Positions 1,337-15,187 of a stretch of DNA of 64,000 bases are shown one piece after another. A model generated the notes under the pieces. The model was given only the letters and a program-made list of their open reading frames with translations. It searched no databases and was not told the DNA's origin. The first letter of the stretch is position 1, and every line of letters begins with the position of its first letter. Source of the stretch: Pirellulales bacterium (GTDB lineage Bacteria > Planctomycetota > Planctomycetia > Pirellulales > Thermoguttaceae); contig CAWGAJ010000001.1 in the NCBI GenBank assembly GCA_963820545.1, positions 266,396 through 330,395 on the forward strand, read 5' to 3'. A program made the position numbers and the translations under genes.

Positions 1337-1409
1337 TGGACAGGGCCGGGATTGAACCGGCGACACCTGGATTTTCAGTCCAGTGCTCTACCAACTGAGC
1401 TACCTGTCC
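1337..1409 (-). tRNA. tRNA-Phe (anticodon GAA)
   Basis: reverse complement reads GGACAGG-TA-GCTC..GAGC-A-CTGGA-CTGAAAA-TCCAG-GTGTC-GCCGG-TTCAATC-CCGGC-CCTGTCC-A, a canonical cloverleaf; CCA is not encoded. Confidence 0.9.
1370..1409. repeat. attL-like 40-bp direct repeat (5' half of tRNA-Phe) bounding the integrated island
   Basis: identical 40-mer GATTTTCAGTCCAGTGCTCTACCAACTGAGCTACCTGTCC recurs at 14281..14320. Confidence 0.8.
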
Positions 1410-1537
1410 ATAAATCTATAACTTCTTATTCTACAATCCGTTATAATCGGACCACTTTTTGTTTTTTAGGGATAAATATCCCTAAAACATTGGATTTATC
1501 CCTAAAGTCATGGTAAGATAGATAATAGAGGTGAAAT

Positions 1538-2620
1538 ATGAGAAAGCCTTATTATAAAAAACAATTACATGCGTGGTATTACAACCGTCCGGGTGATAAC
1601 CGACCGATCCGCTTGTATTCGGAACCCACAAAAACGGCGGAAGGTGAAAAACTTGCATGGGCTGAGTATGGTAAAAAAACAGGTGATTGTCAACCTGTTA
1701 CACTCGGCAACGATCCTACGTTTGCATTCATTGGGCATGAATACCTGGAAGCATTGCGGACGGGTGTAGGCCGAAAATCGGGCCGACCGGCAGCCGACAG
1801 TACAATCTATGCCAATGAGCGGGCTGTAAATGGCTTCTATGCGTTTATCGGCGAGAAAACAAAGGTGTCTGAGATTACGGGCTTACACGTCGATAAATGG
1901 CTTGCCAAAGAAGAGAAAAAATGGAAGGAAAATAAAAAGCAAAACAAAAAGGGCAAGGATTACACGCCAACACAAAGACACAATTTAGCCCGTGACCTAG
2001 TAACTTGTTTCCGGTGGGCACGTAAGAAGGGTTTGATACGTGTAAACCCAATTGATGGGTACGAAAAAGATACGCCCAACAAACGCGATAAGGCACTAGA
2101 TAGCAAACAGTGGCAAACGATCCTTGATAGTGTTGACGGCTGTTTCAAAGACGTGCTTATTGCATTATATGAAACTGGTTGCCGTCCGCAAGAGTTGCGT
2201 ATTATTGAAAATACAAACTTTGATCGGGGCGGTAAACGGTGGATAATTCCAAAAGAAAAGGCAAAAGGAAAAAAGAAAGATCGTATCATTGCCTTGACGC
2301 CTAGCATTGTGGAAATTTGTGAGCGATTAGCGGCTAAATACCCGGTCGGGTCAATCTTCCGCAACAGTAAAAATCGCTCCTGGACACACAACGCCCTTGA
2401 CCTGCGTTTCACCCACTTGTCAGAGAAGGTAGGATTCAAAGTGATCCCTTATATGATCCGCCACACGTTTGCAAGTCGGGGCAAAGCCAATGGTATGGAT
2501 TCATCGTCTGTTGCTACGTTAATGGGAAACTCGCCTGCAATGGTTGACGGTACTTATGCACACCCTGAACAGATTGATCCGAATTATTTACAAGGGCTAT
2601 TGCAACAGGTGACACAATGA
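1538..2620 (+). CDS. int: tyrosine recombinase / phage integrase
   Basis: 360 aa; C-terminal catalytic region IRHTFASRGKANGMD...GTYAH carries R..H..R..Y-type residues; sits directly beside the tRNA-Phe att site. Confidence 0.85.
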   Translation: MRKPYYKKQLHAWYYNRPGDNRPIRLYSEPTKTAEGEKLAWAEYGKKTGDCQPVTLGNDPTFAFIGHEYLEALRTGVGRKSGRPAADSTIYANERAVNGFYAFIGEKTKVSEITGLHVDKWLAKEEKKWKENKKQNKKGKDYTPTQRHNLARDLVTCFRWARKKGLIRVNPIDGYEKDTPNKRDKALDSKQWQTILDSVDGCFKDVLIALYETGCRPQELRIIENTNFDRGGKRWIIPKEKAKGKKKDRIIALTPSIVEICERLAAKYPVGSIFRNSKNRSWTHNALDLRFTHLSEKVGFKVIPYMIRHTFASRGKANGMDSSSVATLMGNSPAMVDGTYAHPEQIDPNYLQGLLQQVTQ

Positions 2621-2814
2621 AAAATTTTGACGAAGAAACTTTCATAAATAATGTGGCATTAGGGACCGATCCATTAACCAGTGCGGCAAGTGCAATTAAT
2701 GATAAGCCAGAAAAACCATCTAAGCCGGGTGTCGGCCCCCGTTTTTTCACTTGGCTTATTGTTTTCTATATCGTGATTCTGTGCATCTTGATTCTTTACC
2801 TCATTTTGGGGTAA
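2617..2814 (+). CDS. small membrane protein (paralogue of 14996..15187)
   Basis: 65 aa; start overlaps the int stop (ATGA); C-terminal TM helix; about 50% identity to MKKFDPETFINLRLLGVDPATS... at 14996. Confidence 0.5.
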   Translation: MKNFDEETFINNVALGTDPLTSAASAINDKPEKPSKPGVGPRFFTWLIVFYIVILCILILYLILG

Positions 2815-2883
2815 TTCTAAAAAAGCCCACCCATTGCAACCCGATTCTAAAAGACTATAATACGGGCAAAGGAGGGTGGGAGT

Positions 2884-3900
2884 ATGTTACGCAAAGTCTT
2901 TCTTCTTTTCTTTTTGCTGGTAACTCCTATATCGGCCCGAACCTGGACCGATTCGACTGGTAAATTTTCTACTGACGCCACACTTGCCGATTGTCAAGGC
3001 GGTATTGCATACCTCCAAAAAGTCGATGGAAAAATTGTGGCGGTCTCGGTCACTAAACTAAGTAAGGCCGATCAAGATTTTCTTAAAACTACTCTTCCAT
3101 CGGTCAGTATAATTTCGGGAAAGGTGGTCGGGGTAACGGACGGGGACACCATAACCGTTTTGGACGATACGAAAACTCAATATAAAATCCGTTTGGAAGG
3201 AATTGACGCCCCGGAAAGTGGTCAAGCCTACGGCACACAAGCGAAACAAGCATTAAGTGACAAAGTTTTTGACAAAGATGTAAAAATTGAATGGCGGAAA
3301 AAAGACCAGTATCAAAGAACATTAGGACACATTTTTGTTGATAATCATTGGATCAACAAAGAAATGATCGAAGAGGGGTGGGCTTGGCATTACAAAGAAT
3401 TTTCAAAATCGGCTGTACTTGCTGACGCCGAGAAGCAAGCCCGAAACAATCAAGCAGGACTTTGGAAGGATTCAAACCCGATTGAACCGTGGGTATTTCG
3501 TAATCCGGCCTTAGCCGAATCCGATCCTTTTGAAACTAAAACCACTACACTTAAAACTAAAACCACTGAACCGCAAACAGCCGATGAAAAAGAGCAAATA
3601 GTTTACGTTACCAAAACAGGGAGCAAATATCATAGTGCCGGTTGCCGTTATCTTGCAAAAAGTAGTATCCCCATGCCTCTAAGTGAAGCGGTAAAACGGT
3701 ACTCACCTTGTAGTGTCTGTAATCCTCCAAGACCGAAAGAAACAAAAACATCAAGTGAAACTCTTGTCACACCTCCCACCGCAAAAGAATCCTATACGCC
3801 TCCACCTGATACCTCAAGTGATAGGGTTCAAGTCAAGGGCTACTATCGCAAGGATGGAACCTACGTTAGACCCCATACCCGTAGTAAACCTAGTAAATGA
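2884..3900 (+). CDS. secreted thermonuclease (staphylococcal-nuclease-like) with N-terminal SHD1-like domain
   Basis: signal peptide; GDTITV..RLEGIDAPE SNase active-site motif; N-terminal WTDSTGKFST motif shared with the C-terminus of the 28279..29199 protein; C-terminal Cys motif YVTKTGSKYHSAGCRY...CSVC. Confidence 0.7.
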   Translation: MLRKVFLLFFLLVTPISARTWTDSTGKFSTDATLADCQGGIAYLQKVDGKIVAVSVTKLSKADQDFLKTTLPSVSIISGKVVGVTDGDTITVLDDTKTQYKIRLEGIDAPESGQAYGTQAKQALSDKVFDKDVKIEWRKKDQYQRTLGHIFVDNHWINKEMIEEGWAWHYKEFSKSAVLADAEKQARNNQAGLWKDSNPIEPWVFRNPALAESDPFETKTTTLKTKTTEPQTADEKEQIVYVTKTGSKYHSAGCRYLAKSSIPMPLSEAVKRYSPCSVCNPPRPKETKTSSETLVTPPTAKESYTPPPDTSSDRVQVKGYYRKDGTYVRPHTRSKPSK

Positions 3901-4181
3901 TTTTTCCAAGCAGCCATAGTATCAAACGTAAAAACCAATTAGGTTTTGCATACTGGGTATCAAGATATTTTTGTGCTTGCTGTTTGTATTCGTTATAGTT
4001 CATTAAAATTATTTAGTTGGTTTGGGCGGTTCTTCTTTACTTTTCTCTTTGCGTTGATCCTCTTCCTCTTTGCGGTCAATGTCATAATTGTATCTTTTTT
4101 CGAGACTGTAGTTGTATCTTTTATCAAGACTGTAATCGTATTTCGGATCAATATCCATTATTTTCCTTTCCATAAAAAATT

Positions 4182-4212
4182 GACGGGCAGCGTGGAGGGA
4201 TTACTGCCCGTC
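4182..4212. terminator. bidirectional rho-independent terminator between convergent genes
   Basis: GACGGGCAG-14 nt-CTGCCCGTC hairpin followed by TTTCCCTC on the plus strand and preceded by AAAAAAT (a T-run on the minus strand). Confidence 0.55.
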
Positions 4213-4221
4213 TTTCCCTCG

Positions 4222-5118
4222 CTATACCATGAGCCAAGTTTCTGAAAACGCCCTACCTAGGAGCATTGTCAATTGGAGCACGTCGGGGTATAAAGCATTA
4301 ACATCTAAATTTCCCGTTATCTTCCCCGCAAAATTCGGGCTGAGATAATACTGTAAGCCGGGAACTAAACCGTCCGAATCCTCTTCGATAACCGCATTCC
4401 ATTGTTCCTTAGTGAACACACAAGGACCAGAGAAATTACAGACCCCGGATTGACTGGGCGGAATAATTTCTGTAGCCATAGCAATCACGCGACTCTTCTC
4501 TGGATAATCGGGATCGACATACGCAGGATAAATTGACAGACCATCGCGGCAAACGGGCATCCCTGGTAAAATTGTTGTATCGCTGGTATTCAATAATTTT
4601 TGTGTGAGAATGCCTAGACCTTTTGCGGAGTCTCCCTTGTCCCCTTTTTTCCCCGTGGAACCACCTGGACCTTGAGGGCCAGTTAAATGAGGCCCTAGGA
4701 CCTTCCCATTAACCTCTAGTCTATCAAAGTCGCGTCCCTTCCCGAAACCGACCGTTAATTTTAGTGTCGGGATTACAGCATCCTTGCCCGGGGCACCATC
4801 TTTTGGAATTGGAAAATCGACGCCGGGCATAGGTGTTTTTCCATCGACTCCATCTTTCGGAATTGAAAAATCAATACCGGGAATTGGCGTCTTACCATCG
4901 ACTCCATTTTTTGGGATCGGAAAATCAATACCGGGAATTGGCGTCTTACCATCGACACCATCTTTGGGAATTTTAAAATTATTTAATTTCTCCCAGATAG
5001 TTTGAATCTGAGACGATAATTTCTGGATTGCAGACCATATCGGGTCGGGTCCGAAATACTGACCGTCAACCGACATGGCATTTTTATCGAATTCATCTTG
5101 ACTTAATTTTTTAACCAT
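4222..5118 (-). CDS. phage tail-fibre-like protein with collagen-like / tandem repeats
   Basis: 298 aa; three and a half copies of an 18-aa repeat FxIPKDGVDGKTPIPGID plus a G-x-y collagen-like stretch GPQGPGGSTGKKGDKGD. Confidence 0.55.
   Translation of the reverse strand: MVKKLSQDEFDKNAMSVDGQYFGPDPIWSAIQKLSSQIQTIWEKLNNFKIPKDGVDGKTPIPGIDFPIPKNGVDGKTPIPGIDFSIPKDGVDGKTPMPGVDFPIPKDGAPGKDAVIPTLKLTVGFGKGRDFDRLEVNGKVLGPHLTGPQGPGGSTGKKGDKGDSAKGLGILTQKLLNTSDTTILPGMPVCRDGLSIYPAYVDPDYPEKSRVIAMATEIIPPSQSGVCNFSGPCVFTKEQWNAVIEEDSDGLVPGLQYYLSPNFAGKITGNLDVNALYPDVLQLTMLLGRAFSETWLMV
4805..4970. repeat. three tandem copies of a 54-bp coding repeat inside the tail-fibre gene
   Basis: GGAATTGGAAAATCGACGCCGGGCATAGGTGTTTTTCCATCGACTCCATCTTTC and two near-identical units. 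Confidence 0.7.
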
Positions 5119-5120
5119 AT

Positions 5121-5651
5121 TTATTTCTCTAAATAATTTGCTGCCTTACGGACAATGTGTGGATCATCTTTTAAGTATCCAATTCCACGATTACACTGAT
5201 TACACAATAGACCTCTAAATTTACCTGTTTGATGATTGTGGTCTTTATGTGGAGTCTTTTGAAAAGGTTGGCCACAAATTGCACAGGAATTATTTTGTTG
5301 TTTTAGTATTAAATTGTATTGATCTTCCGTAAGATTGTATTTTTTAAGTTGACGTATTTGATTGTGTGCTTTACCTTTTGGTGTTTGATTGAATGCTCTC
5401 CTTTGGGCTCTATATTTTGGTGTTTGTTGGCGCACTTTTTTCTGGACCAATCTTTCTGGCGTTTGATCGTATGCTTTCCATTTTGGCAGTTGACGTTGTA
5501 TTTTCAGATATTCTTTTCTAGTTTTACACCCGACTAAATGTTCAGGATTTATACAGCGTCTATTGCTACAAGTTGATATAACGAATTTAGCATTGACAAG
5601 AGAATGTCGAATCTTAGTAGCGGGTCTATTATGAATTATGCAATCATTCAA
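5121..5651 (-). CDS. HNH / recombination endonuclease VII-family nuclease
   Basis: N-terminal CSNRRCINPEHL HNH-like motif; C-terminal CAICGQ..HKDHNHQTGKFRGLLCNQCNRGIGY matches the Endo VII (T4 gp49-like) zinc-binding nuclease motif. Confidence 0.65.
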   Translation of the reverse strand: MNDCIIHNRPATKIRHSLVNAKFVISTCSNRRCINPEHLVGCKTRKEYLKIQRQLPKWKAYDQTPERLVQKKVRQQTPKYRAQRRAFNQTPKGKAHNQIRQLKKYNLTEDQYNLILKQQNNSCAICGQPFQKTPHKDHNHQTGKFRGLLCNQCNRGIGYLKDDPHIVRKAANYLEK

Positions 5652-5726
5652 TTTTGCCTCTCAAGTGGGTTGATATAAAAGATAGTCAAAGCACAGTTTT
5701 TAATTGTGCTTTGACTCAATAGTTGT

Positions 5727-5909
5727 TTACGGATGACTTATCCAAACTGGTCCACTTGCACCGCTTGCCCCAACTTGGAGAATGTAAAATCCCGGATCAG
5801 TTGGAGCCGGTGGTATATTGTCATTCAGCGGACCTGTCGGTCCAGTTGCACCCGTGACGCCCTTATCTATGGCCGCATTAGTTGGATTTGTGTAATTAAA
5901 TTCAGACAT
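5727..5909 (-). CDS. small collagen-like hypothetical protein
   Basis: 60-aa ORF with GATGPTGP and GASGASGP triplets; phage context. Confidence 0.3.
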   Translation of the reverse strand: MSEFNYTNPTNAAIDKGVTGATGPTGPLNDNIPPAPTDPGFYILQVGASGASGPVWISHP

Positions 5910-5925
5910 TAGTTTTCTCCTCTGT

Positions 5926-6177
5926 TTAATGTGTTTGATTGTGACGTGTTAATTGTTCATTCAAACTAGAAAATCTAGCTTTGAATTTTTGCACAAAACT
6001 ATCATCGGGTCCTAGGACACTGATAAGATAATTGGTTACTTTATCCACGCTTGTTATTCCGTCGGTTGCCGTCGGGTTTGCATCCTCTAAGCATGTTAAT
6101 AACACGCGAAAAGGTTCGGCTTCGTATGCTGTTGAGTTTCTCAATTCTTTGAGTAAATGTGTGAATGCTGATGACAT
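5926..6177 (-). CDS. hypothetical protein
   Basis: 83-aa ORF in a co-directional phage gene string. Confidence 0.4.
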   Translation of the reverse strand: MSSAFTHLLKELRNSTAYEAEPFRVLLTCLEDANPTATDGITSVDKVTNYLISVLGPDDSFVQKFKARFSSLNEQLTRHNQTH

Positions 6178-6253
6178 AGATTTCTCCTAATAAAAATAAT
6201 AACAAGGGCCACCCAGCCACCGGTTCCAGAAAGTGGCCGGGTGTTCTGGGCGG

Positions 6254-6997
6254 TCAAACAATGACCTCTTTGCCCTTATTTGCTTCGGTAATTTGTTCAT
6301 TCAATTTTGCGTCAGTTGCCAAGACCTCTGCCGTTTCGATTGTGTGTTGCGTTTTCAATGCTTCTAGCCTTTGCAAACGCTGGTCATATAATTTACTACT
6401 CTCCTTGTAATACAAGTCGGGATTCTCGGCTGCTATTACTTTTAATACGATCCTAGCGTCAATCTCATCCTGATTATTTTCAATTCCTTGTGCCGACAGT
6501 AAGCCCAACTCTGCCGACTCGATAGCCGATTTTATTTTCGGATTATTTTCGCGTTCATAATCCGCTAGACGTTGCTCCATGAGTCTATCAATCTGTGCTT
6601 CCCGTTCCTTCGCAGCCTTCTCTAGGCTTTTGATTGTTTCGGTCGGGCATCGGTTGCCGGGTCGATCATTCCGTAATCTTTCCGCAAGCACGATAGCGGG
6701 ATAGTTTTTCGGCCGAATTAAATGCGGTGGTGTTTCACCTGCCGCAAGCCGTTTTGCTTCCGCCTCTGCTTGGACTAACTTGTCTCTTGCCTCTTTTTGC
6801 AACTGCCGATAATGAACCCGTTCATCGAAAGTTTTTCGAGTCCCGTCAGGGTGAAAAAATGCGGGGTCCAATTCCCCCGTTTCTGTTTTTTTCTGATTGC
6901 GAAAAGCAACCCGTTGCTCATACGTTAAGCCGTATGGTGTGCCGTCAGCCATTGTGGGTTGATCCGTGGGTAATCCGTTAATCATTGTTTTTTCCAT
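6254..6997 (-). CDS. hypothetical coiled-coil protein (possible phage structural or scaffold protein)
   Basis: 247 aa, charged heptad-rich sequence, within the phage-like module. Confidence 0.45.
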   Translation of the reverse strand: MEKTMINGLPTDQPTMADGTPYGLTYEQRVAFRNQKKTETGELDPAFFHPDGTRKTFDERVHYRQLQKEARDKLVQAEAEAKRLAAGETPPHLIRPKNYPAIVLAERLRNDRPGNRCPTETIKSLEKAAKEREAQIDRLMEQRLADYERENNPKIKSAIESAELGLLSAQGIENNQDEIDARIVLKVIAAENPDLYYKESSKLYDQRLQRLEALKTQHTIETAEVLATDAKLNEQITEANKGKEVIV

Positions 6998-7044
6998 GTT
7001 ATTTCTCCGTGAGAATTAAATTTTACTGACAAAATTAAACCGTG

Positions 7045-7278
7045 TCAGTCTTTCGGTTGTTTGTAAGTTGCGGCTATAAATTCATATTCTTTGTGTTCCG
7101 CATCGGCAATACTTCGCTTAAAAGTTTTTTGGCCAATGTCTTTTACGTAATAATCTGTGCCCGATGCCAAACCATGTAGATGCAAAAGTCCAAAAACAAA
7201 AACAGGCTCTAAAATATCACGGTCAAAAGTCCAGTGATATTTTTTACATAAAGCAAGCATTTTTTCTAAAGCGACCAT
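7045..7278 (-). CDS. hypothetical protein
   Basis: 77-aa ORF. Confidence 0.35.
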   Translation of the reverse strand: MVALEKMLALCKKYHWTFDRDILEPVFVFGLLHLHGLASGTDYYVKDIGQKTFKRSIADAEHKEYEFIAATYKQPKD

Positions 7279-7367
7279 ATTTTTTATTTCCTACCCGGCA
7301 ATCAAACGTCCGAAAGCCGCCGATTGCCGGGGAACCATGTAAGTAATGAGGAAACTTACCGGCTCAT

Positions 7368-7808
7368 TTATAAGTTGTCATGTGGTGTCGATTCAAACAG
7401 TGCAATATGGTACATAAGCATTTCACGAAAAACATCAACGAAATTTTCAACAGTAGCGTAAACATAATAATAGTTTTCAGCCGGTCTATCGTGATAACAT
7501 TCTATGCAAATTTGTAATGGATCATCCCAGATTGGATACACTCGACAAAACATCGGTTTACCGAATTCATCCCAATTCAAACGGCACTCACCTGGACCGC
7601 CACCATCATTAAATAATAAGCCTTGATAGCCGTCATAACTTCTTAATACGTTTTTGAGCATACCCGCTGTTGCGGTATATTGCTCTTGCATCGTTTGTTG
7701 CGTCTGGCGTCTGGCTTGCTTTTCTTCCGCAATTACTTTGCGTGCCGTTTCTAATGCAATATCATCTTTTTCATGGTTCATATAATTCTCTTTGTAATTG
7801 GTCGGCAA
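7368..7808 (-). CDS. hypothetical protein
   Basis: 146-aa ORF, overlaps the upstream gene by 31 nt. Confidence 0.45.
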   Translation of the reverse strand: MPTNYKENYMNHEKDDIALETARKVIAEEKQARRQTQQTMQEQYTATAGMLKNVLRSYDGYQGLLFNDGGGPGECRLNWDEFGKPMFCRVYPIWDDPLQICIECYHDRPAENYYYVYATVENFVDVFREMLMYHIALFESTPHDNL

Positions 7809-8494
7809 CCACCACCGCAGCCGTTGTCAATTACGTCTGATAAAATTTGTAGTCCCATGCAAGCATAAATCAGACAGTGAAATAGGTGGTCATTCATTCC
7901 CTCTATCATTCTGGCATTAAGAATCTGAGTCTTTAGTGTTGATTGTCCGATTAACGATTGTGGGATACGCAACTGTCCGCCTTTTATTTTCAGGTTGCAA
8001 AATTGAATCCAGTTTGATCTATTTGCCCGGAATTCATCACCCTTTTCGATTAGGTCCAGTCCGGGGGCACTTGCACTATATAGAACTCCGTTTGCAAATT
8101 TTCCATACGCCGTTTCACCGATTTTGTCTAATTCCTGTTTGATATAGACTGATTGATAGCCTAAATCCATTACACATTTATTAACTTGAAAAAGTTTTGC
8201 AGCATCAAACGTCTGTTCAAAAATAGACTCGATTGGAAAACTACGCCAATGAATTACATGCCCGACCGTTTGGCTACAATTGCGGGGGATTTTTTGCCAT
8301 TCAACTACCACAAGATATGTCGGTTGCCCACCATCAAGCCCGATAGTTCTAGGAACATCATCCGTATACGGCAATTTTATTTCATAGGGTACAGTTATTT
8401 TTTCCAAGTCCCCAGGGCTGGGGCGGGATGGATCGGGTTGATATGGCATTCCCAAAATCGAATTCCAAAATACTTTTTTTGCTACTTCGCTCAT
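7778..8494 (-). CDS. terminase large subunit, nuclease-domain ORF (GpA-like C-terminal part)
   Basis: follows the ATPase ORF with an ATGA overlap; position and size fit a terminase nuclease domain; no strong motif read directly. Confidence 0.45.
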   Translation of the reverse strand: MSEVAKKVFWNSILGMPYQPDPSRPSPGDLEKITVPYEIKLPYTDDVPRTIGLDGGQPTYLVVVEWQKIPRNCSQTVGHVIHWRSFPIESIFEQTFDAAKLFQVNKCVMDLGYQSVYIKQELDKIGETAYGKFANGVLYSASAPGLDLIEKGDEFRANRSNWIQFCNLKIKGGQLRIPQSLIGQSTLKTQILNARMIEGMNDHLFHCLIYACMGLQILSDVIDNGCGGGCRPITKRII

Positions 8495-9384
8495 TCTAAT
8501 CCCTCAAAATATGCCTTAACGATGCGTGGAGCATCCAAGACGGGTGACATTAGACCATTCACGCTAAATGACCGGGTACTAGATTGCTGGCATGGAACCC
8601 ATACCCCAGTCCCAACCGGATCGGCCTTATCTCGATTTTTCAACCAGATTTTTTTTGTCTCATGGTCTAATTTTTTCCCGCAAGTCGGGCACTTAAAATA
8701 GGACCGATTGCAGTTAATATCATTTTTATTTTCCCCGCAAATTTCGATTGATTCGGGAAAAAGCATCGTGATAAATTTATGGCAACCGGGGCAACGGAAG
8801 AAATAGAATTCCTGGCTACCTTCCAGAAACCTTTTATGTATCCCTATGTCGGGTTCGGTTGGCGTGCCGGTATAGAAAACGTGAAACTCTTTTTGCCCTA
8901 GTCCGCGTGTCAATGCGTGCTGGATTGCTGCCTCCCCACACAAATCGACTTCATCAACAAACAACCACGGTAGCGGAATAGATGATAGATTGATAATGCT
9001 CTTGGCCCCGAATAAAGCTAAGGTTGCATCGCCCACAGACTTGAGTAATTTAGTATCGACGGTAAACAGATTTTTCAAAAACGGGGTGTGGGCAATCAAA
9101 GTAGAAAGATAAACTTGCCCTAACCGTTCGACCGACTTTTCAGACGGTTCAAGTAGACCGCAAGATTGATGCCGCACGGCAAGTATGTAAACAATCGCGG
9201 CTAAAAATAAAGAAGTACCGCCACTCTGGGCACTCTTTAATAATGCGACAGATTCATTCTGGAAAATTGCTTTCAGAATCTCAATTAAATACGGGTGATT
9301 AGCCAATGTCCAACACCCTGGAAAAGGTGGGGGCATATTTAGTTTATTGTGTTGCAAATAACTGTACGGATCGGGCAATAACAT
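8491..9384 (-). CDS. terminase large subunit, ATPase-domain ORF (GpA-like)
   Basis: Walker A-like KSAQSGGTS, Walker B LFVDEVD, and a zinc ribbon CPGC..CPTC as in lambda gpA-family terminases. Confidence 0.55.
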   Translation of the reverse strand: MLLPDPYSYLQHNKLNMPPPFPGCWTLANHPYLIEILKAIFQNESVALLKSAQSGGTSLFLAAIVYILAVRHQSCGLLEPSEKSVERLGQVYLSTLIAHTPFLKNLFTVDTKLLKSVGDATLALFGAKSIINLSSIPLPWLFVDEVDLCGEAAIQHALTRGLGQKEFHVFYTGTPTEPDIGIHKRFLEGSQEFYFFRCPGCHKFITMLFPESIEICGENKNDINCNRSYFKCPTCGKKLDHETKKIWLKNRDKADPVGTGVWVPCQQSSTRSFSVNGLMSPVLDAPRIVKAYFEGLE

Positions 9385-9385
9385 A

Positions 9386-9910
9386 TTACCTCACAGGCGG
9401 GTTTATAAATGACTCTGGTAAACCTTGCTCTTGATTGATTCGATTGATTGCAATGTATTTTTCTAACTCTTCGATTGTTAAACTTAGATCAGGGGGAAAA
9501 GTCGGCGTCGGGGATGATAACAAAGTAGATCGGATCAGGTTTGCATCTTCACCCGTGAAATTAAATTCAGTGATTGCCCCCGATAGTAACTGTTGGTAGA
9601 CATGTCTTTCGATATTCTCCCTTAAGACCGACCAGGCACATAAGCCGGGGATTAACTTGGCGAAAGTCTGTACGGCAACCGTAACGGTATCAGAATAAAT
9701 CTCAATCAGTCTCTCAGCACTTAACGTCGGGCGTGCCGTTTGTTGATGCTGTTCTAACTCCGCTAGTTCATCTTGGGCTTTCAGATACATTTTTTGGTAT
9801 TGTAATCTTTCGTTGCCCTCAGACTTTTTAATTTGTTTTTTTAGTTCTCTGATTTGTTTTTTCTTAGCTTCTATCATTGGCTTCCTCATATTTAATTTCA
9901 GGCCCGTCAT
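9386..9910 (-). CDS. hypothetical protein (candidate terminase small subunit by position)
   Basis: 174 aa, lysine-rich coiled-coil N-terminus, immediately upstream of the terminase ATPase ORF. Confidence 0.4.
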   Translation of the reverse strand: MTGLKLNMRKPMIEAKKKQIRELKKQIKKSEGNERLQYQKMYLKAQDELAELEQHQQTARPTLSAERLIEIYSDTVTVAVQTFAKLIPGLCAWSVLRENIERHVYQQLLSGAITEFNFTGEDANLIRSTLLSSPTPTFPPDLSLTIEELEKYIAINRINQEQGLPESFINPPVR

Positions 9911-10082
9911 AATCTTTATTTATGGACGGTCGATCATCACGGCGTCTTTGCCCGTTGGAAGAGTATCTAACAGAAATAGAATGGCCCCAAGATGATCCTG
10001 CCACCCAACACTCTTCACATTTTCCATCGTAATATGGTTTTACATCCTTACTTCCGCACACTAAGCAAATAGAATCTGGCAT
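9864..10082 (-). CDS. small zinc-ribbon protein
   Basis: 72 aa with CLVCGS...CEEC; overlaps the downstream gene by 47 nt, so the call is uncertain. Confidence 0.3.
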   Translation of the reverse strand: MPDSICLVCGSKDVKPYYDGKCEECWVAGSSWGHSISVRYSSNGQRRRDDRPSINKDYDGPEIKYEEANDRS

Positions 10083-10168
10083 CTAGTCTCCGAATTGTTT
10101 ATATGGTGGATCAAGCGGGGTATATTTTTAGGGGGTAAAAGTATGCTCCCCGCCCGATCCGTTTATTT

Positions 10169-10558
10169 TTAATTTAATGAGATAGGAGGTAAATAATTTG
10201 TGTCATCGTCTTGCCCATGATAGATTGCATATCGAGGACGTGACGGGTCTTTTGTAAGATCATTTTTCACTACATCTTGGAATGAGTATATATCTGAATA
10301 CATATTATTATTTATTTTAATACCGCCAAACGGGATTGGGATTTCAACGGTGGCAACTACTTTATCGCCGTCTAGTAATTGATAACCGAATTCAAGACGC
10401 TTAATAATCCATCCGTTCTTTTCGGCAACAGGTTGAATTTCTTCCTTGATGTATTTAAGTAAAAATTTTCGGTAACGATAGACGGTTTTATACAGTTTAC
10501 CTATTTCAAAAAAAATACAGTTCAAAAAATACAGTTTGTCAATTTCTTTGTCAGTCAT
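10169..10558 (-). CDS. hypothetical protein
   Basis: 129-aa ORF, AT-rich phage context. Confidence 0.45.
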   Translation of the reverse strand: MTDKEIDKLYFLNCIFFEIGKLYKTVYRYRKFLLKYIKEEIQPVAEKNGWIIKRLEFGYQLLDGDKVVATVEIPIPFGGIKINNNMYSDIYSFQDVVKNDLTKDPSRPRYAIYHGQDDDTNYLPPISLN

Positions 10559-10564
10559 TTTTTC

Positions 10565-11074
10565 TTAATAATCAGGATGATTCACGCATAAAACTTTGAA
10601 TCTCTGCTTGCTATACATGAGAACTTCATGGGGTTTGCTTTTCCATTTTAGACATTTTCGGCGTAAATTAAATGTATGGAATGAGCAACTTTCCCCCTTG
10701 ACGTATAGACAACAATAAATATGCCATGCCGAATGCCACCCATTCTCAAACCAATACACTCGTTTCCCATATCTATAATTAAATGTTTTTTCAAGCGAAC
10801 CCGTTGCTTTATAACGGCGATAGGCAGTTGATAAACTGATTTTGGCTTCATCCCCCAATTGTGCATGAGCTTCCTTCATTGAATTACACGATACTACTTC
10901 CGGGATTTCATACTTTGCTTTTTTCTCTGGATTCTTTAATACTGCCTGTTCCAGGTCCATGCCCCGATGCCGTCTTTCTTTTAACACCTCATAAGACACG
11001 AAACATGCGTTTCTGTCTTCACTTAACTTTCGGAGTGACGGGTAAGTCTTTCCATGTAATTCAACTGGTATCAT
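10565..11074 (-). CDS. hypothetical protein
   Basis: 169-aa ORF. Confidence 0.45.
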   Translation of the reverse strand: MIPVELHGKTYPSLRKLSEDRNACFVSYEVLKERRHRGMDLEQAVLKNPEKKAKYEIPEVVSCNSMKEAHAQLGDEAKISLSTAYRRYKATGSLEKTFNYRYGKRVYWFENGWHSAWHIYCCLYVKGESCSFHTFNLRRKCLKWKSKPHEVLMYSKQRFKVLCVNHPDY

Positions 11075-11310
11075 GCCACTTCCAAAATTTTTCCATCGAC
11101 CACTTCATAATCATGGCATAGTTGCAAACCCACTATGTGGATTTTGCCCTGCCATATTCCGGCCTCAAAACCGAGGTTGCACAGTGACGCCAATAACACG
11201 TCGGCTGTCCACGGCTCGGTCGATTCTCGGTTTATGGCCGCTAGAATTTCGTCCAGGGCGGTCAATTGCCCGAATTCGGTCCGCTCATGGATAAAGTCAA
11301 TCAGTTTCAT
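11071..11310 (-). CDS. hypothetical protein
   Basis: 79-aa ORF, 4-nt overlap with the downstream gene. Confidence 0.4.
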   Translation of the reverse strand: MKLIDFIHERTEFGQLTALDEILAAINRESTEPWTADVLLASLCNLGFEAGIWQGKIHIVGLQLCHDYEVVDGKILEVA

Positions 11311-11387
11311 TGTTCACCTCGTTTCATAATTCTTCTCTCTACTTCTATCTCTAGCTAATAAGGGGTTGTTTTTTTCAATAATTAAAA

Positions 11388-11750
11388 TTATTTTTTCGAT
11401 TTTTTCGTAAGTCCGCCTGATCTATCACCTTTACGTTCCTTGATGATTGCATTCCAGACGGATTTATTGAGGTATCCCACGGCTGTATGATGGTTATTTA
11501 ATTTGTCAATGGCACCCGTAAGAGCAAGCATTGCCGCCTGGAATAGGTCATTAGGATCGACGCCGTAGGGATTCCCCTTTTTCATCACGGTATGGACCAT
11601 CTTGGCAATGCGTTTTTGGAAACCGTCAAGCAACTCCTGACGTGCCCAATCCTTCTTATAGTCATGGGTAATACAGCCGGCCAGAAAGCGGACTTCAGGT
11701 GCAGTGAGACCGGGAGGCAGTTCAAAGGGAAGATCAAGGATTTGTCGCAA
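11388..11750 (-). CDS. hypothetical protein (possible phage regulator)
   Basis: 120-aa ORF, first gene of the leftward transcription unit next to the control region. Confidence 0.45.
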   Translation of the reverse strand: MRQILDLPFELPPGLTAPEVRFLAGCITHDYKKDWARQELLDGFQKRIAKMVHTVMKKGNPYGVDPNDLFQAAMLALTGAIDKLNNHHTAVGYLNKSVWNAIIKERKGDRSGGLTKKSKK

Positions 11751-11936
11751 GATGCAAGAGGCAGTCTACACAGACTGTTTGCCCGACCTTGACGGGCACG
11801 GCCCCAAACGGGCAAGACGGCCCGAAAGAGTAAGTATATTGATTCAATTATCTATATCTATTATACATGATAAAATGGGAATGTCAAGTAAAATAGTTAA
11901 AATTGATTTTTAGCGTGTAAATAAAGTCTTGCGCCT

Positions 11937-12226
11937 AAACGGTAACAGGAATTCTCACGACAGTTTTAGTTTGACTTGTCATAAGTCTATGGCATGTCGC
12001 AGGTTATCATCAAACGGTAACAGGAATTCTCACATTTGTTGTTGAACTTGGGTTACTTTCTATATTAGAACAGGCTCATTTAAAAAATCAGTTCTCCGAT
12101 ATGGGAAATAAGAGAAGTTCAACAACAAATGTGAGAATTCCTGTTACTTTTTCGCGTAACTCCCTGATATATAAGGAGTTAGAATAATGACAAGTATAAC
12201 TGTCGTGAGAATTCCTGTTACCGTTT
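11937..12226. promoter_or_regulatory. nested inverted-repeat array (operator, iteron or origin-like) in the island's divergent control region
   Basis: A1 11937..11963 pairs with A1' 12200..12226 (27 bp); B1 12013..12047 pairs with B1' 12117..12147 (31 bp perfect); shared core GGTAACAGGAATTCTCAC. Confidence 0.6.
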
Positions 12227-13002
12227 TTACCATTAAACCACTTGCAGGCATCGCGGTTGCTCGCGGTTTTTCTTATTTCGCGGTTAAATTTTGCAAATAA
12301 AGTCAATTCAATCATTATAAACTAAGAAATGATTTTACATGACAAAGGTATTGATGATTGAAAAGAAGCCCCGGATCGACCGGCAAAAGTCCATTTATCC
12401 TTGACTTTTAAGGATAACAAGCCGGATTCTTTTTACAACTCTTTATCTATCAAAGACTTATGAATAGAAAGCAACTGGACTATTTGTCCAATGAAGCTAT
12501 GATTCTGGCCCCATTTTAGGGAGGGTGGGTCAAATCAATTAAACGAATCAAAAGGGTTGTAACGATTGTAGGGGCGGGCTGTCCTTGGGTCAGATACAGT
12601 CAAAAAAACCGATTAAAAAAGACGCCAGAAACAGTGTAAAAAGAGCCATTTTTCGATCAAAATTGATTAAAAACAGCTATTTTTGTATAAAAAGCGCCAA
12701 AGAAGCCAGATTCTTTATGCTGTGCTCTATTTAATGTTTAATCTGGCCGTCTAGGATCGCTGTATACAGCGTCTTGCAGGTGGGGTCGATCCAATTTCCC
12801 TACCTTTTCATATTGGGCGTATTACGCTGTCTGGGATTGGTATAGGAATTGCATATCCTATGCCGGAACCGTGGAATATGTGGTTTTTGTTGAATTTAGG
12901 CAACCCAATGATGTTAAATCAGCACAGTAAAGTTACAATCGTCACAAACGTTACAACTGCAACACTAATAGTCAAAAGTACCAGAAAATGCAATGGAAAC
13001 AG

Positions 13003-13030
13003 TTGACAAACGATGAAACAGTGGTATACT
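13003..13030 (+). promoter_or_regulatory. sigma70-like promoter
   Basis: TTGACA, 16-nt spacer, TATACT, about 65 nt upstream of the 13095 start. Confidence 0.5.
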
Positions 13031-13094
13031 TAAGATAGAGTTACGATAGGAACTACACCCTGAGCATGGAGCCACAAAAACTGGAGACAGTGTT

Positions 13095-13463
13095 ATGAGT
13101 AAGAAGAAAGTAAAAGCGGAGCCTGAGAGGCAGCCAACAAAGCTACTAGTAGTAGACGTGGTGCCAGCGAACTCAAGGCGGTATTCGCATTATCCGTTGA
13201 ATGCGACAAAGGCGGAAAAGAAAATCATCGACGCCGAAAACATCCGAACTGATGACGCGGAAGCGTTGATCGACCCCGACATCTTGGAAGAACTGGACGG
13301 CGAACTCGACAGCATCGGTCAAGAGGCGATTGAACAGCAAACTGATTTGCTGTATGAAGCATTCGCTAAGGCTGGCATCGACAAACCGACTGAGAAGCAA
13401 CTCCAAACGGTAGTCAACGGATTGAATTGTGAATATCCCGTCCCCTATTTTTGCGACATTTAA
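13095..13463 (+). CDS. hypothetical acidic protein
   Basis: 122-aa ORF, first gene of the rightward unit. Confidence 0.45.
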   Translation: MSKKKVKAEPERQPTKLLVVDVVPANSRRYSHYPLNATKAEKKIIDAENIRTDDAEALIDPDILEELDGELDSIGQEAIEQQTDLLYEAFAKAGIDKPTEKQLQTVVNGLNCEYPVPYFCDI

Positions 13464-13527
13464 CGGAGTCGCATGGGCGGGGTCTTGAAAAGATAGCCCC
13501 GCTCAATTTTTTAATAAGGTATTAAAG

Positions 13528-13767
13528 ATGGAACCCCAGTATTTAACAATCAAGGAAATCGCGGAACAGTTGCATCTAGCAACTGTGACTATTTACCGTG
13601 CTATCGACGATGGAAGATTAAAAGCATTCAAGTTTGGCCGTGGCCGTGGTGGTTGGCGAGTCAACGTGGATGATTTTCGTAAGTGGGTGGAGAGTTGCAC
13701 CCATGAGCAACAGCAAAGAACCCTTTTTGACAGTAACCCAGTAATGGAGGACACAAAACCAGAGTAA
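13528..13767 (+). CDS. excisionase-family DNA-binding protein (Xis-like HTH)
   Basis: LTIKEIAEQLHLATVTIYRAIDDGRLKAFKFG matches the excisionase/MerR-like HTH pattern; lies near attR. Confidence 0.6.
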   Translation: MEPQYLTIKEIAEQLHLATVTIYRAIDDGRLKAFKFGRGRGGWRVNVDDFRKWVESCTHEQQQRTLFDSNPVMEDTKPE

Positions 13768-13773
13768 AGAATT

Positions 13774-13944
13774 ATGTCAAGTCCAAGTCTTAAACGTGCA
13801 AACATAAGAAAAACCAAATACCCTAGTCATTATCACTATGAGTGCAAGGAATGTGGAACCGGATGGCTTATTTTACGTGATAAAAATGGGCATCGGCCAC
13901 GGGGTTGGTGGAAGTGTCCAAACGGGTGTAACGATCAACAATAA
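13774..13944 (+). CDS. small zinc-ribbon protein
   Basis: 56-aa ORF (below the ORF-track cutoff) with CKEC..CPNGC. Confidence 0.3.
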   Translation: MSSPSLKRANIRKTKYPSHYHYECKECGTGWLILRDKNGHRPRGWWKCPNGCNDQQ

Positions 13945-13980
13945 CAAGGTGAATGGATACCCTAAACCAGGTGCTACTAT

Positions 13981-14163
13981 GTGTCAACAAATAATGAATG
14001 GCTTACGGTCAATGAGTATGCTGCAATGTGGGGCGTCTCTGCAAAGACCATCTATCGTCTAATAAACAAGACGCAATTGTCAGTGCAACGGATCGGCAGA
14101 GCAATTAGGATTCACTGTCAAACGATACCGATTGACAAACCACAGCCTCTTAGACGCCTTTGA
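13981..14163 (+). CDS. second excisionase-family HTH protein
   Basis: LTVNEYAAMWGVSAKTIYRLINKTQL..RIGRAIRI. Confidence 0.5.
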   Translation: MSTNNEWLTVNEYAAMWGVSAKTIYRLINKTQLSVQRIGRAIRIHCQTIPIDKPQPLRRL

Positions 14164-14280
14164 TTATCCCTGTTTATCCCTGGAATGGTGTCCAAAAGCG
14201 TCAAAAACAGGGTAAAAATCACGGTCTTTTACCGCGTCGAATCTGCCGATAGATAAGGACTTACATCAATTGCTTGATTC

Positions 14281-14320
14281 GATTTTCAGTCCAGTGCTCT
14301 ACCAACTGAGCTACCTGTCC
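14281..14320. repeat. attR-like 40-bp direct repeat (orphan copy of the tRNA-Phe 5' half)
   Basis: identical to 1370..1409. Confidence 0.8.
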
Positions 14321-14321
14321 G

Positions 14322-14400
14322 TAACTCGTAAGACGACTTTTAAAGTCGTCCTACAGTAACCGTAAATCGTAAGACGACTTTTAAAGTCGTCCTACAGTAA
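14322..14400. repeat. two tandem copies of a 39-bp unit containing a hairpin
   Basis: CGTAAGACGACTTTTAAAGTCGTCCTACAGTAA occurs twice; each holds a GACGACTTT/AAAGTCGTC stem. Confidence 0.6.
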
Positions 14401-14580
14401 TATATAATCGCCAATCGGGAAACGCTCATAATAAAGGTAAGGCGAAAGCTTGTCAATTGGGGCATAACTCCATGCACGGCAACGCATTACTGCCGAAATA
14501 AAACGCCCGCCCAACACCCTTTCTATAAGCGTCATTTTTGTGCCAACCTCCGCAGCGGATGCAGGGGATTGCATTCTTTA

Positions 14581-14776
14581 GGCCTGGAGGGCCGAAGTAG
14601 TGTAGCCAGGGACGCAAGTCCCTGGGGAGAGTTTATAACCTACTGAAAAGCCCCGGAGGGGCGGCGTACATGAATCGTTTTCGGCATCCTATGTCGCCCT
14701 TTCAGGGCTGCATCCGAAGAATCAATACGTTCCGGTGGCTTACGCCACCGGCTACACAATATCGGCCCTCCGGGCC
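14581..14776. ncRNA. candidate GC-rich structured RNA (unclassified; strand unknown)
   Basis: 5' arm GGCCTGGAGGGCCGAAGTAGTGTAGCC (14581..14607) pairs with 3' arm GGCTACACAATATCGGCCCTCCGGGCC (14750..14776); internal hairpins CAGGGAC..GTCCCTG and CCGGTGGC..GCCACCGG; about 58% GC in a 40% GC context. Confidence 0.35.
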
Positions 14777-14995
14777 TAACGCAATTTTCCCCACACAACC
14801 CAACGTAAAAGGCTAGAGCAGTGCTCAGGATGATGTAGCGTCCGTTTAGCCCGGTCGCTTGCGACCGGTGAATTTTCCCCGGGAATATGCTCCGCTACAC
14901 CATGTTGAACAGCGTTCTAAATAGTTACAAACAGTATATGCCCACCCCGATGAAAACTATATGCAACAAGCATTGCAACAGGTGGTAGGCGATCT

Positions 14996-15187
14996 ATGAA
15001 AAAATTCGATCCCGAAACATTCATCAATCTGAGACTGCTTGGCGTCGATCCGGCAACCAGTATTGCAGCATCGCTTGAGGATAAACCGCCTGAGAAAAAA
15101 CCGCCAAAGCCAATCCCTTATATTTCTCCCCTTCTAGTTGTCTTGATTGCAATTATTTTCATTCTACTTTGCTTGGGCAGATTCTAA
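14996..15187 (+). CDS. small membrane protein (paralogue of island gene 2617..2814)
   Basis: 63 aa, same architecture: FDxETFIN..G.DP.TS, a Pro/Lys linker, and a C-terminal TM helix. Confidence 0.5.
   Translation: MKKFDPETFINLRLLGVDPATSIAASLEDKPPEKKPPKPIPYISPLLVVLIAIIFILLCLGRF

Follow-up and report, generated by a model that had tools for sequence, protein, structure and literature searches.

The 64-kb window analysed here, a 64,000-nt stretch of the Pirellulales contig CAWGAJ010000001.1, holds at 14580-14777 a structured unit of ~198 nt, which an earlier sequence-only reading had put forward as a novel non-coding RNA (ncRNA) or ribozyme. We consider it very probable that this unit is a non-autonomous, gene-less DNA derivative of a Y1 (HUH) transposase element, similar to the hairpin-forming doublets (REPINs) of repetitive extragenic palindromes (REPs) and to miniature inverted-repeat transposable elements (MITEs). 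The same nested ends bracket a Y1 open reading frame (ORF) in related loci, and the window unit is therefore read as a Y1 element in which the ORF is reduced to a 19-nt loop.

Inverted Acido-Lenti-1 arms in the window and in other genomes

The whole window was scanned with Rfam 15 at gathering thresholds, and 14200-15100 was scanned a second time at E <= 1. The first scan gave two matches to RF01687, Acido-Lenti-1 (gathering score 37 bits), one on each strand (E 7e-8 for the right arm and 2e-6 for the left; positions and scores in Table 1), both of which span model positions 1-46. The region had been called not recognisable, and this was overturned, as each arm is a full-length RF01687 match above the gathering score; the long-range stem described earlier is two inverted copies of one 46-nt motif. 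In common with the model, the arms have hairpins of 8 bp with a 4-nt loop and of 5 bp with a 3-nt loop, a 12-nt linker, GGCU(A), CG and a terminal CU. In a repeat scan the inverted repeat had two arms of 48 nt (14578-14625 and 14732-14779), which are 77% complementary and enclose 106 nt; the 27-nt arms of the sequence-only reading are contained in it, and every helix listed there is present. A motif pattern of 19 specified bases in IUPAC code, written from the Weinberg seed alignment of the family, matched the window twice, at the two arms, against 0.01 matches expected, and the 64 kb hold one unit only. In the second scan no Rfam match was obtained to ribozymes, transfer-messenger RNA (tmRNA), RNase P RNA, signal recognition particle (SRP) RNA, GOLLD, ROOL, hammerhead or twister, the other matches at E <= 1 being one sub-threshold tRNA and two sub-threshold matches at chance level, and ARAGORN reported no tmRNA. 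The earlier exclusion of tmRNA, SRP RNA, RNase P RNA and hammerhead thus stands, as no such Rfam model matched.

Acido-Lenti-1 was described from Lentisphaerae, Acidobacteria and metagenomes and was rated a likely RNA on covariation, the sole functional remark being that it sometimes lies near group II introns (Weinberg et al. 2010, PMC2864571). The seed alignment of that study already holds tandem arrays as well as inverted pairs spaced as in the window unit (wf3_AHAI13594_y1 at 575-530 and 682-727; ABCK01000016), and it includes dozens of motif copies from Lentisphaera araneosa (PMC2864571). According to a preprint of February 2026, little is known of what Acido-Lenti-1 does, and regulation of neighbouring protease genes is offered there as a guess. 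Rfam models the 46-nt arm only and types it as a small RNA (sRNA) gene, whereas the window unit consists of inverted arms with nested modules, is linked through related loci with a Y1 transposase gene and is most readily understood as DNA.

The whole unit is predicted to fold as a single long hairpin, and in this fold the palindrome runs past the unit ends, 14564-14572 pairing with 14781-14792. The minimum free energy of 14550-14800 was -130.6 kcal/mol, compared with -84.4 +/- 5.0 for dinucleotide shuffles (z -9.3), and the minus strand of the same interval gave z -8.7; such near-equal values on both strands hint at a DNA palindrome, not a strand-specific RNA. The unit has 58.1% GC, compared with 41.8% in its AT-rich left neighbour, an integrated element, and 54.4% in the rest of the window, so that the GC contrast reported earlier holds towards the left side but not against the chromosome, which the unit matches. 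The statement that no ORF fits needs a similar adjustment, since two short ORFs cross the palindrome (14640-14798 on the reverse strand, 52 aa; 14670-14816 on the forward strand, 48 aa), although neither is supported as a gene.

GTDB genomes were scanned with the 19-base pattern, which gave at least 120 loci, mostly in Acidobacteriota and Planctomycetota and also in Bacteroidota, Verrucomicrobiota and others. A covariance model (R1), built from the seed plus the two window arms, gave ~270 matches when run on the 120 loci, and in the window it also matched part of the inner-right module (14686-14708, forward strand, model positions 23-45). Loci L114 and L065, from Pirellulaceae and Planctomycetales, have the same large hairpin as the right window arm (CCGGTGGC/GCCACCGG). 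The dominant arrangement is the divergent pair, a reverse-strand motif followed by a forward-strand one, found at 46 places among the 120 loci with 81-155 nt between the arms (81-127 nt in 40 of the 46). Such units run in the order arm, ~23-nt spacer, inner module, short variable loop, mirrored inner module, ~23-nt spacer and arm, the typical inner module, AGCCCCGGAGGGGCGACAGA, being a small hairpin, CG and linker without the large hairpin. Under a strict hairpin filter, 22 of the 46 units had inner hairpins on both sides and 33 had them on one side or both, and by eye they were seen in ~40. The median spacer length is 23 nt, left (range 19-36) and right alike, compared with 23 and 22 nt in the window; the sequence of the spacers and of the central loop is not conserved across units.

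Three gene-less copies in one metagenome-assembled genome (MAG; CAWHMV01, copies L045, L109a and L109b) align over the whole stretch bounded by the first AG and the last CT, with flanks that are unrelated, and comparison of these three paralogous copies revealed no direct target-site duplications. Arms are more alike within a unit than between units: in the large stem identity is 93% within and 68% between, and in the linker 79% and 58%, as expected for the two ends of one element.

Several variants of the arrangement were seen. Complementarity of the flanks beyond the unit was present in 6 of 44 related units, compared with ~1% in permutations (L026 1652-1868 and L068 6289-6527, both with 15-16 nt perfect or near-perfect, and L045, L062, L072 and L027), and these flank palindromes would reflect either insertion of units into the centres of other palindromes or true termini that lie further out. 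A second class of unit (L049 241-415, L012 3131-3306 and L100 2815-2989) has the same outer arms around an unrelated 81-82-nt palindrome (CCCTCTCCCGC...GCGGGAGAGGGG), which replaces the inner small-hairpin modules. In Parabacteroides acidifaciens, a cultured member of the Bacteroidota, two near-identical units (L002 3345-3550 and L101 6281-6487) remain similar for ~20 nt past the arms, into a 20-nt perfect palindrome, GGGCGGTTCGCGAACCGCCC, apparently of another repeat family. Outer arms also form tandem arrays (L130 1028-1450, L149 921-1327, L081 5908-6228, L112 1913-2172 and 2728-2902) that repeat every 72, 89, 107 or 129 nt and frequently lie just upstream of a Y1 gene; they recall the clustered REPs of REPtrons. 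Viral contigs seldom carry the motif (19 stretches in 2.9 million), and the analogy with prophage-linked GOLLD and ROOL RNAs that had been drawn for the unit is left without support.

Covariation was assessed in an alignment (A3) of the concatenated arms of 32 units with exact 46-nt arms. The four local hairpins were paired in 98.8% of cells, with 20 of 26 pairs changed on both sides (score 0.578), and the arm-to-arm stem in 87.9% of cells, with 26 of 46 pairs changed on both sides (score 0.383); none of 500 shuffles reached either score. In about one-third of units the arm-to-arm stem is broken at the small-hairpin columns, and the local small hairpins are each >99% paired. In the window, the two large hairpins (CCAGGGAC/GTCCCTGG and CCGGTGGC/GCCACCGG) differ at six stem positions (three pairs), all compensated in cis. 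Because changes are compensated in cis and local pairing is kept where the long stem fails, these alignments point to selection on the local hairpins, with the long stem as an apparent by-product of the inverted arrangement, and the 200-nt fold was rejected as the selected structure since the local hairpins pair better. The long-range pair proposed as a pseudoknot (CGGATGCAG at 14556-14564 with CTGCATCCG at 14708-14716) does exist in the window copy, but it is not conserved: the corresponding complementarity in 43 other units is at chance level, with a median longest match of 5 nt. The covariation test in homologous loci that the sequence-only reading had itself suggested was thus positive for the four local hairpins, and not for a 200-nt multi-helix fold or the pseudoknot. 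Its view that the region is a real, non-random and conserved structured element holds.

The Y1 transposase gene between the same ends

The 3,387 ORFs of the 120 motif loci were compared by all-against-all BLASTP. This comparison revealed one family encoded between inverted motifs (in L048, L064, L074, L099 and L112) and no other recurrent neighbour gene. All five proteins belong to PF01797, Y1_Tnp (E 1e-25 to 1e-27); they pass the cut-off of 55 bits for NF033573, the IS200/IS605 model, with 70-76 bits, and do not pass that of 80 bits for NF047646, the REP-associated transposase model, with 21-26 bits. In the protein alignment (A2) they display DHVH or DHIH, WQ and YIxNQxxHH, a length of 143-150 aa and a conserved C-terminal tail. 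The nearest solved structures, at weak E-values, are the TnpA proteins of ISDra2 and IS608 (PDB 2xm3, 2vjv), and no tnpB was seen next to the Y1 ORFs.

The layout of the gene-bearing copies is that of the gene-less units with an ORF at the centre. L064 reads outer-left arm, 21-nt spacer, AGCGCCGGAGGTGCGACAC, ATG...ORF...TAG, GTGTCGCACCTACGGCGCT, 21-nt spacer and outer-right arm, so that the ORF is adjoined by the inner-left module at its ATG and by the inner-right module at its stop codon. In most of the gene-bearing loci examined the inner-left module likewise ends at the start codon, and the inner-right module begins a few bases past the stop. L099 has the layout of L064 with a premature stop and is a pseudogene, and L076 retains a 50-aa N-terminal Y1 remnant between arms 331 nt apart; together with the minimal units, which have 81-127 nt between the arms, they form a decay series. 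In L064 (6729-6750) and in protein-anchored loci such as L140, L136 and L157 a GGAGG lies inside the inner-left hairpin, 12-14 nt upstream of the Y1 start, and this might, speculatively, be a sequestered Shine-Dalgarno sequence as in IS200.

The association was then approached from the protein side. An alignment of the five Y1 proteins retrieved 590 metagenome relatives, of which the best 80 (48-66% identity) were kept; their loci were thus fetched by Y1 similarity alone, and 62 of them have at least 250 nt on both sides of the gene. Within 200 nt, 43 of these 62 loci carry a reverse-strand motif upstream together with a forward-strand motif downstream, and 57 carry at least one of the two. 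Most often the motif is 40-50 nt from the ATG on the upstream side and 45-56 nt from the last aligned codon on the downstream side, and within the same 200 nt the orientation was correct in 60 cases upstream and 53 downstream, compared with 13 and 9 in the wrong orientation. Inner modules lie directly against the ORF in most of 15 protein-anchored loci (for example AGCCCCGGAGGGGCGAAAGAAAC followed by ATG, and a stop codon followed by TTTCTTTCGCCCCTTCGGGGCT), and spacers of ~20-27 nt occupy the same place beside the Y1 genes. The positional association between motif and Y1 gene is therefore strong from the motif side and from the protein side alike.

A full element of this kind would comprise an outer arm, a ~23-nt spacer, an inner module, the ATG...stop ORF of ~148 aa, a second inner module, a ~23-nt spacer and the other outer arm. 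In the window copy a 19-nt loop would take the place of the ORF, and the two halves would in consequence form one long imperfect palindrome. IS200/IS605 and REP-associated Y1 enzymes act on hairpins in single-stranded DNA (PMC6006769). By analogy with them, the hairpins of the unit would fold in single-stranded DNA, for example at replication forks, and a cognate Y1 enzyme acting in trans would bind them and cut and rejoin the DNA at the ends, so that the window copy itself may be mobile.

Known Y1 systems and alternative readings

Several features of the motif become REP-like on the strand opposite to the Rfam annotation. There, the four bases at the foot of the large hairpin are GTAG more often than any other sequence (in 23 of the 61 arms and in 35 of the 88 copies that flank genes), with ATAG, TTAG and GCAG next in frequency; the loop of the large hairpin is GNNA and that of the small hairpin GNA. 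Non-Watson-Crick exceptions in the two stems that are A.C on the Rfam strand and G.T on its complement prevail by 62 to 18 in the RF01687 seed and loci L001-L200, a count inflated by related copies. From these patterns the folding strand is probably the complement of the one annotated, and the strand annotation of RF01687 may be reversed. REPs have been described as having GTAG or GTGG 0-2 nt 5' of a hairpin, a fully paired basal stem of 7-20 bp with at least three of its first four bases G or C, and a loop of 2-5 nt (PMC6006769). Both window arms agree with this description, GTAG being followed directly by a GC-rich, fully paired stem of 8 bp with a 4-nt loop: GTAG then CCAGGGAC-GCAA-GTCCCTGG on the plus strand (14602-14625), and GTAG then CCGGTGGC-GTAA-GCCACCGG on the minus strand (complement of 14732-14755). 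Like REPINs and bacterial interspersed mosaic elements, the unit has inverted REP-like arms that fold into one long hairpin, here around a spacer of 106 nt with nested structure. AG opens the element and an almost invariant CT closes it. In E. coli, hairpins with a GTAG guide are recognised by TnpA-REP, which cleaves at CT, and pairing of the cleaved dinucleotide with the A and G of the GTAG foot has been proposed (PMC3479197), a process to which the AG and CT ends may be a functional parallel.

The window family thus has GC-rich hairpins with a GTAG 5' foot and inverted doublets in common with the REP/REPIN/RAYT systems (RAYT, REP-associated tyrosine transposase). As in REPtrons (PMC6006769), a Y1 HUH gene has inverted copies of the repeat on its two sides, an arrangement found at the level of the family and not within the window. 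Gene-less copies are dispersed in both, and the three paralogous copies compared here lack a direct duplication of the target; copy number is one unit in the 64-kb window and several per MAG in other genomes (three in CAWHMV01). In contrast to the tyrosine motif YxxxNP of RAYTs, the window-family protein has Y---Q--HH and is not RAYT-type by its NF047646 score. Unlike REPs, moreover, each repeat is compound, joining two hairpins, a further pair of small hairpins is nested between the repeats, the unit reaches ~200 nt, and the hosts are mainly Acidobacteriota and Planctomycetota, whereas REP/RAYT systems are those of Proteobacteria.

The family resembles IS200/IS605 in that its proteins pass NF033573 and have their nearest solved structures there, in that a foot or guide sequence accompanies the subterminal hairpins, and in that some derivatives lack the gene and are non-autonomous. 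The gene-less IS200/IS605 derivatives include the palindrome-associated 'PATE' elements. Unlike IS200/IS605 ends, those of the window family are double hairpins with an extra inner pair. The TnpA-Y1 subclass 1.2 is defined by DH[IV]H, WQ, YIxNQxEHH, a median length of 148 aa and a conserved C-terminal tail; it is recorded mainly from Cyanobacteria and Bacteroidetes, with REP "no" and without terminal structures (Quentin et al. 2018, PMC6006769). The window-family proteins carry this signature and are placed in subclass 1.2 by signature, not by phylogeny. In contrast to the published description, their genes have conserved inverted hairpin modules and come from loci in Acidobacteriota, Pirellulales and other taxa. 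Two further candidates from the same phyla, with flanking atypical structures or terminal inverted repeats and possibly high copy number, have been described as intermediates between insertion sequences and REPtrons, namely class 3 TnpA-Y1 (NHVH, W[TA], Y----Q, 178 aa, hairpin foot CnGA; PMC6006769) and the TIRYT genes of TIRtrons, which are Y1 genes of Acidobacteria and Planctomycetes with terminal inverted repeats (Di Nocera et al. 2013, PMC3733652). Class 3 was rejected on its signature and foot (CnGA against GTAG), and equivalence with the Koribacter TIRYT genes was rejected since TIRYTs such as aba_1552 have an NP-type tyrosine motif.

Taken across the family, we incline, with some hesitation, to the broader view that Acido-Lenti-1 is the DNA recognition module of a cross-phylum, REPtron-like system, previously unrecognised and based on subclass-1.2 Y1 transposases, and is not an sRNA. 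Such a system would have compound double-hairpin inverted ends and abundant gene-less derivatives of ~200 nt, would stand mechanistically between IS200/IS605 and RAYT/REPIN, and would include the window unit as one derivative that can be mobilised in trans as single-stranded DNA. A link between RF01687 and subclass 1.2 Y1 transposases appears to be new, as the subclass was recorded as lacking flanking repeats, and no connection between Acido-Lenti-1 and a transposase was found in the literature searched.

That the hairpins instead fold in a transcript, as a stand-alone structured ncRNA of ~200 nt, a ribozyme or a regulatory sRNA acting in trans, would agree with the very stable predicted fold, the strong covariation of the hairpins, the rating of 2010 and the Rfam type, and the motif, if transcribed, would lie in both untranslated regions, 5' and 3', of the Y1 mRNA. 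Folding is equally good on both strands, however, and each unit contains the motif in both orientations; the covariation concerns the local hairpins and neither the multi-helix fold nor the pseudoknot, the spacers and loop are not conserved in sequence, and the wobble-type exceptions favour the strand opposite to the annotated one. A promoter scan found no promoter-like site inside the unit, where the only terminator-like matches are its own small hairpins, and the nearest promoter-like site (14456->14428, reverse strand) points away from it. With no ribozyme or large-ncRNA family matched at E <= 1, and a fixed placement around a transposase ORF that has the look of transposon ends, nothing specific speaks for the novel ncRNA or ribozyme proposed earlier, and we regard this explanation as highly unlikely.

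Two other explanations accept the tie to the transposase. The unit could be a transposon remnant now kept for a REP-like host function, for example as a barrier or insulator between the divergent promoters of tRNA-Phe and the downstream ORF, as a stabiliser of mRNA 3' ends or as a site for nucleoid or topology proteins; this concerns its present role and overlaps the origin favoured here. Such roles are documented for REPs (PMC6006769), and the unit is found within a divergent intergenic region, ~120 nt upstream of a strong promoter of sigma-70 type that faces the tRNA-Phe remnant; its hairpins are intact and both arms are above the Rfam gathering score, so that the copy is not visibly decaying. 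The flanks of paralogous copies are unrelated, however, and the all-against-all ORF comparison found no recurrent class of neighbour except Y1, and we judge a retained host function unlikely. Alternatively, the two-arm palindrome might be a target into which Y1 genes insert, gene-less units then being empty targets and not deletion derivatives. The position of the ORF exactly in the central loop would suit this, and the 6 of 44 units centred in larger flanking palindromes would fit hairpin-loop targeting. In contrast, fixed distances between arms, modules and ORF across proteins of 50-66% identity from many samples argue for co-inheritance, the pseudogene and the 50-aa remnant indicate decay from gene-bearing to gene-less copies, and the sharp AG...CT boundaries within unrelated flanks indicate that the gene-less unit itself was copied; an empty target is thus extremely unlikely.

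Several points weigh against the preferred reading of the unit as a gene-less derivative of a Y1 element. No Y1 gene lies within the 64-kb window, and it was through the motif that the 120 loci of the genome scan were selected. Hairpins of DNA and of RNA cannot be told apart by covariation, and the wobble count is inflated as stated above. The associated protein scores as IS200-type and not as a REP-associated transposase, and the left and right hairpins of IS200/IS605 are on the same strand, whereas the ends of the window family are inverted; with an IS200-type protein and inverted ends, neither known mechanism transfers cleanly. Lastly, the BioA-like aminotransferase encoded next to the unit had no exact match, and its homologues, no more than 85% identical, are from Thermoguttaceae and Pirellulales MAGs, which makes a planctomycete the probable host; its closest relatives (83-85% identical) have a different upstream neighbourhood and provide no empty site or presence/absence comparison.

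Chromosomal context and significance

The unit lies just outside a 12.9-kb integrated element, whose limits are set by direct repeats of 44 nt, 97.7% identical (Table 1). These repeats correspond to the 5' half of tRNA-Phe instead of the usual 3' end, and in addition to the intact tRNA-Phe gene a decayed remnant was found that scores 26.6 bits against a gathering score of 29. The island has 41.8% GC, compared with 54.4% for 14800-64000. That the unit is part of this tRNA-Phe island was rejected, as it lies outside the 44-nt repeats; the earlier suggestion of an association with a mobile element therefore holds in that the unit is related to mobile DNA, through the Y1-element family, but not as regards the adjacent island.

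Directly upstream of the tRNA remnant, a 41-nt sequence is duplicated in tandem (98% identical), each copy holding a 13-bp hairpin, and the strong sigma-70-like promoter mentioned above (TTGACA-17-TATTAT, 11 of 12 positions) faces the remnant. To the right of the unit, a second imperfect palindrome has 27-nt arms that are 74% complementary and encloses a terminator-like hairpin, CCGGTCGCTTGCGACCGG; it has AATTTTCCCC and GCTACAC in common with the right end of the unit. The enclosed hairpin resembles the large hairpin and was considered as a third arm, a candidate rejected as the motif model did not match it and BLAST found shared words of 7-10 nt only. The second palindrome may be a degenerate extra arm or may be unrelated. 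A group II intron segment (domains D1-D4, RF02005, 123 bits) with no obvious adjoining reverse-transcriptase ORF is also present in the window; a link with the unit was rejected, the two being 12 kb apart with nothing connecting them. In Lentisphaerae, group II introns close to Acido-Lenti-1 had been noted (PMC2864571).

Table 1. Parts of the window unit and features of its surroundings (window coordinates).
Feature	Positions	Strand	Description
Left flank	14564-14579		outside the conserved element; GGGGATTGC (14564-14572) pairs imperfectly with GCAATTTTCCCC
Outer-left arm	14580-14625	-	full-length Acido-Lenti-1; 43.0 bits (Rfam), 46.4 bits (R1); plus-strand order A, small hairpin, linker, large hairpin
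Outer-left small hairpin	14581-14593		GGCCT-GGA-GGGCC
Outer-left linker	14594-14605		GAAGTAGTGTAG; 12 nt, last four GTAG
Outer-left large hairpin	14606-14625		CCAGGGAC-GCAA-GTCCCTGG; 8 bp
Left spacer	14626-14648		23 nt; length conserved, sequence not
Inner-left module	14649-14671		AGCCCCGGAGGGGCGGCGTACAT; small hairpin GCCCC-GGA-GGGGC (14650-14662), CG, linker
Central loop	14672-14690		GAATCGTTTTCGGCATCCT; 19 nt; site of the Y1 ORF in autonomous relatives
Inner-right module	14691-14709		ATGTCGCCCTTTCAGGGCT; linker, CG, small hairpin GCCCT-TTC-AGGGC (14696-14708), T
Right spacer	14710-14731		22 nt; includes CTGCATCCG, the partner in the proposed pseudoknot
Outer-right arm	14732-14777	+	full-length Acido-Lenti-1; 48.4 bits (Rfam), 51.4 bits (R1)
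Outer-right large hairpin	14732-14751		CCGGTGGC-TTAC-GCCACCGG; 8 bp
Outer-right linker	14752-14763		CTACACAATATC
Outer-right small hairpin	14764-14776		GGCCC-TCC-GGGCC; terminal T at 14777
Right flank	14778-14793		GCAATTTTCCCC at 14781-14792 pairs with the left flank
Integrated element	1337-14324		12.9 kb
Direct repeats	1370-1413, 14281-14324		44 nt each
tRNA-Phe	1337-1409	-	intact
tRNA-Phe remnant	14250-14320	-	decayed
Integrase gene	1538-2620		island gene
SNase/SHD1 protein gene	2884-3900		island gene
gpA-type terminase ATPase gene	8491-9384		island gene
Sigma-70 region-2 protein gene	11388-11750		island gene
Tandem duplication	14319-14359, 14360-14400		41 nt each
Sigma-70-like promoter	14456->14428	-	faces the tRNA-Phe remnant
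Second palindrome	14814-14840, 14893-14919		27-nt arms; whole 14814-14919
Terminator-like hairpin	14851-14868		CCGGTCGCTTGCGACCGG
Group II intron segment	26563-26788	-	RF02005

For the window itself the significance is modest, as the feature is a single member of a repeat family, showing no sign of activity here, and not a new ribozyme. For the family the consequences would be wider. RF01687 has stood since 2010 as an sRNA whose function is unknown, and if the motif is transposon-end DNA, annotation pipelines are labelling scars of mobile DNA as ncRNA genes. Subclass 1.2 would gain a candidate substrate, which would make its biochemistry testable with defined oligonucleotides, and the combination of an IS200-type enzyme with RAYT-type inverted ends would bear on the origin of domesticated REP/RAYT systems from insertion sequences.

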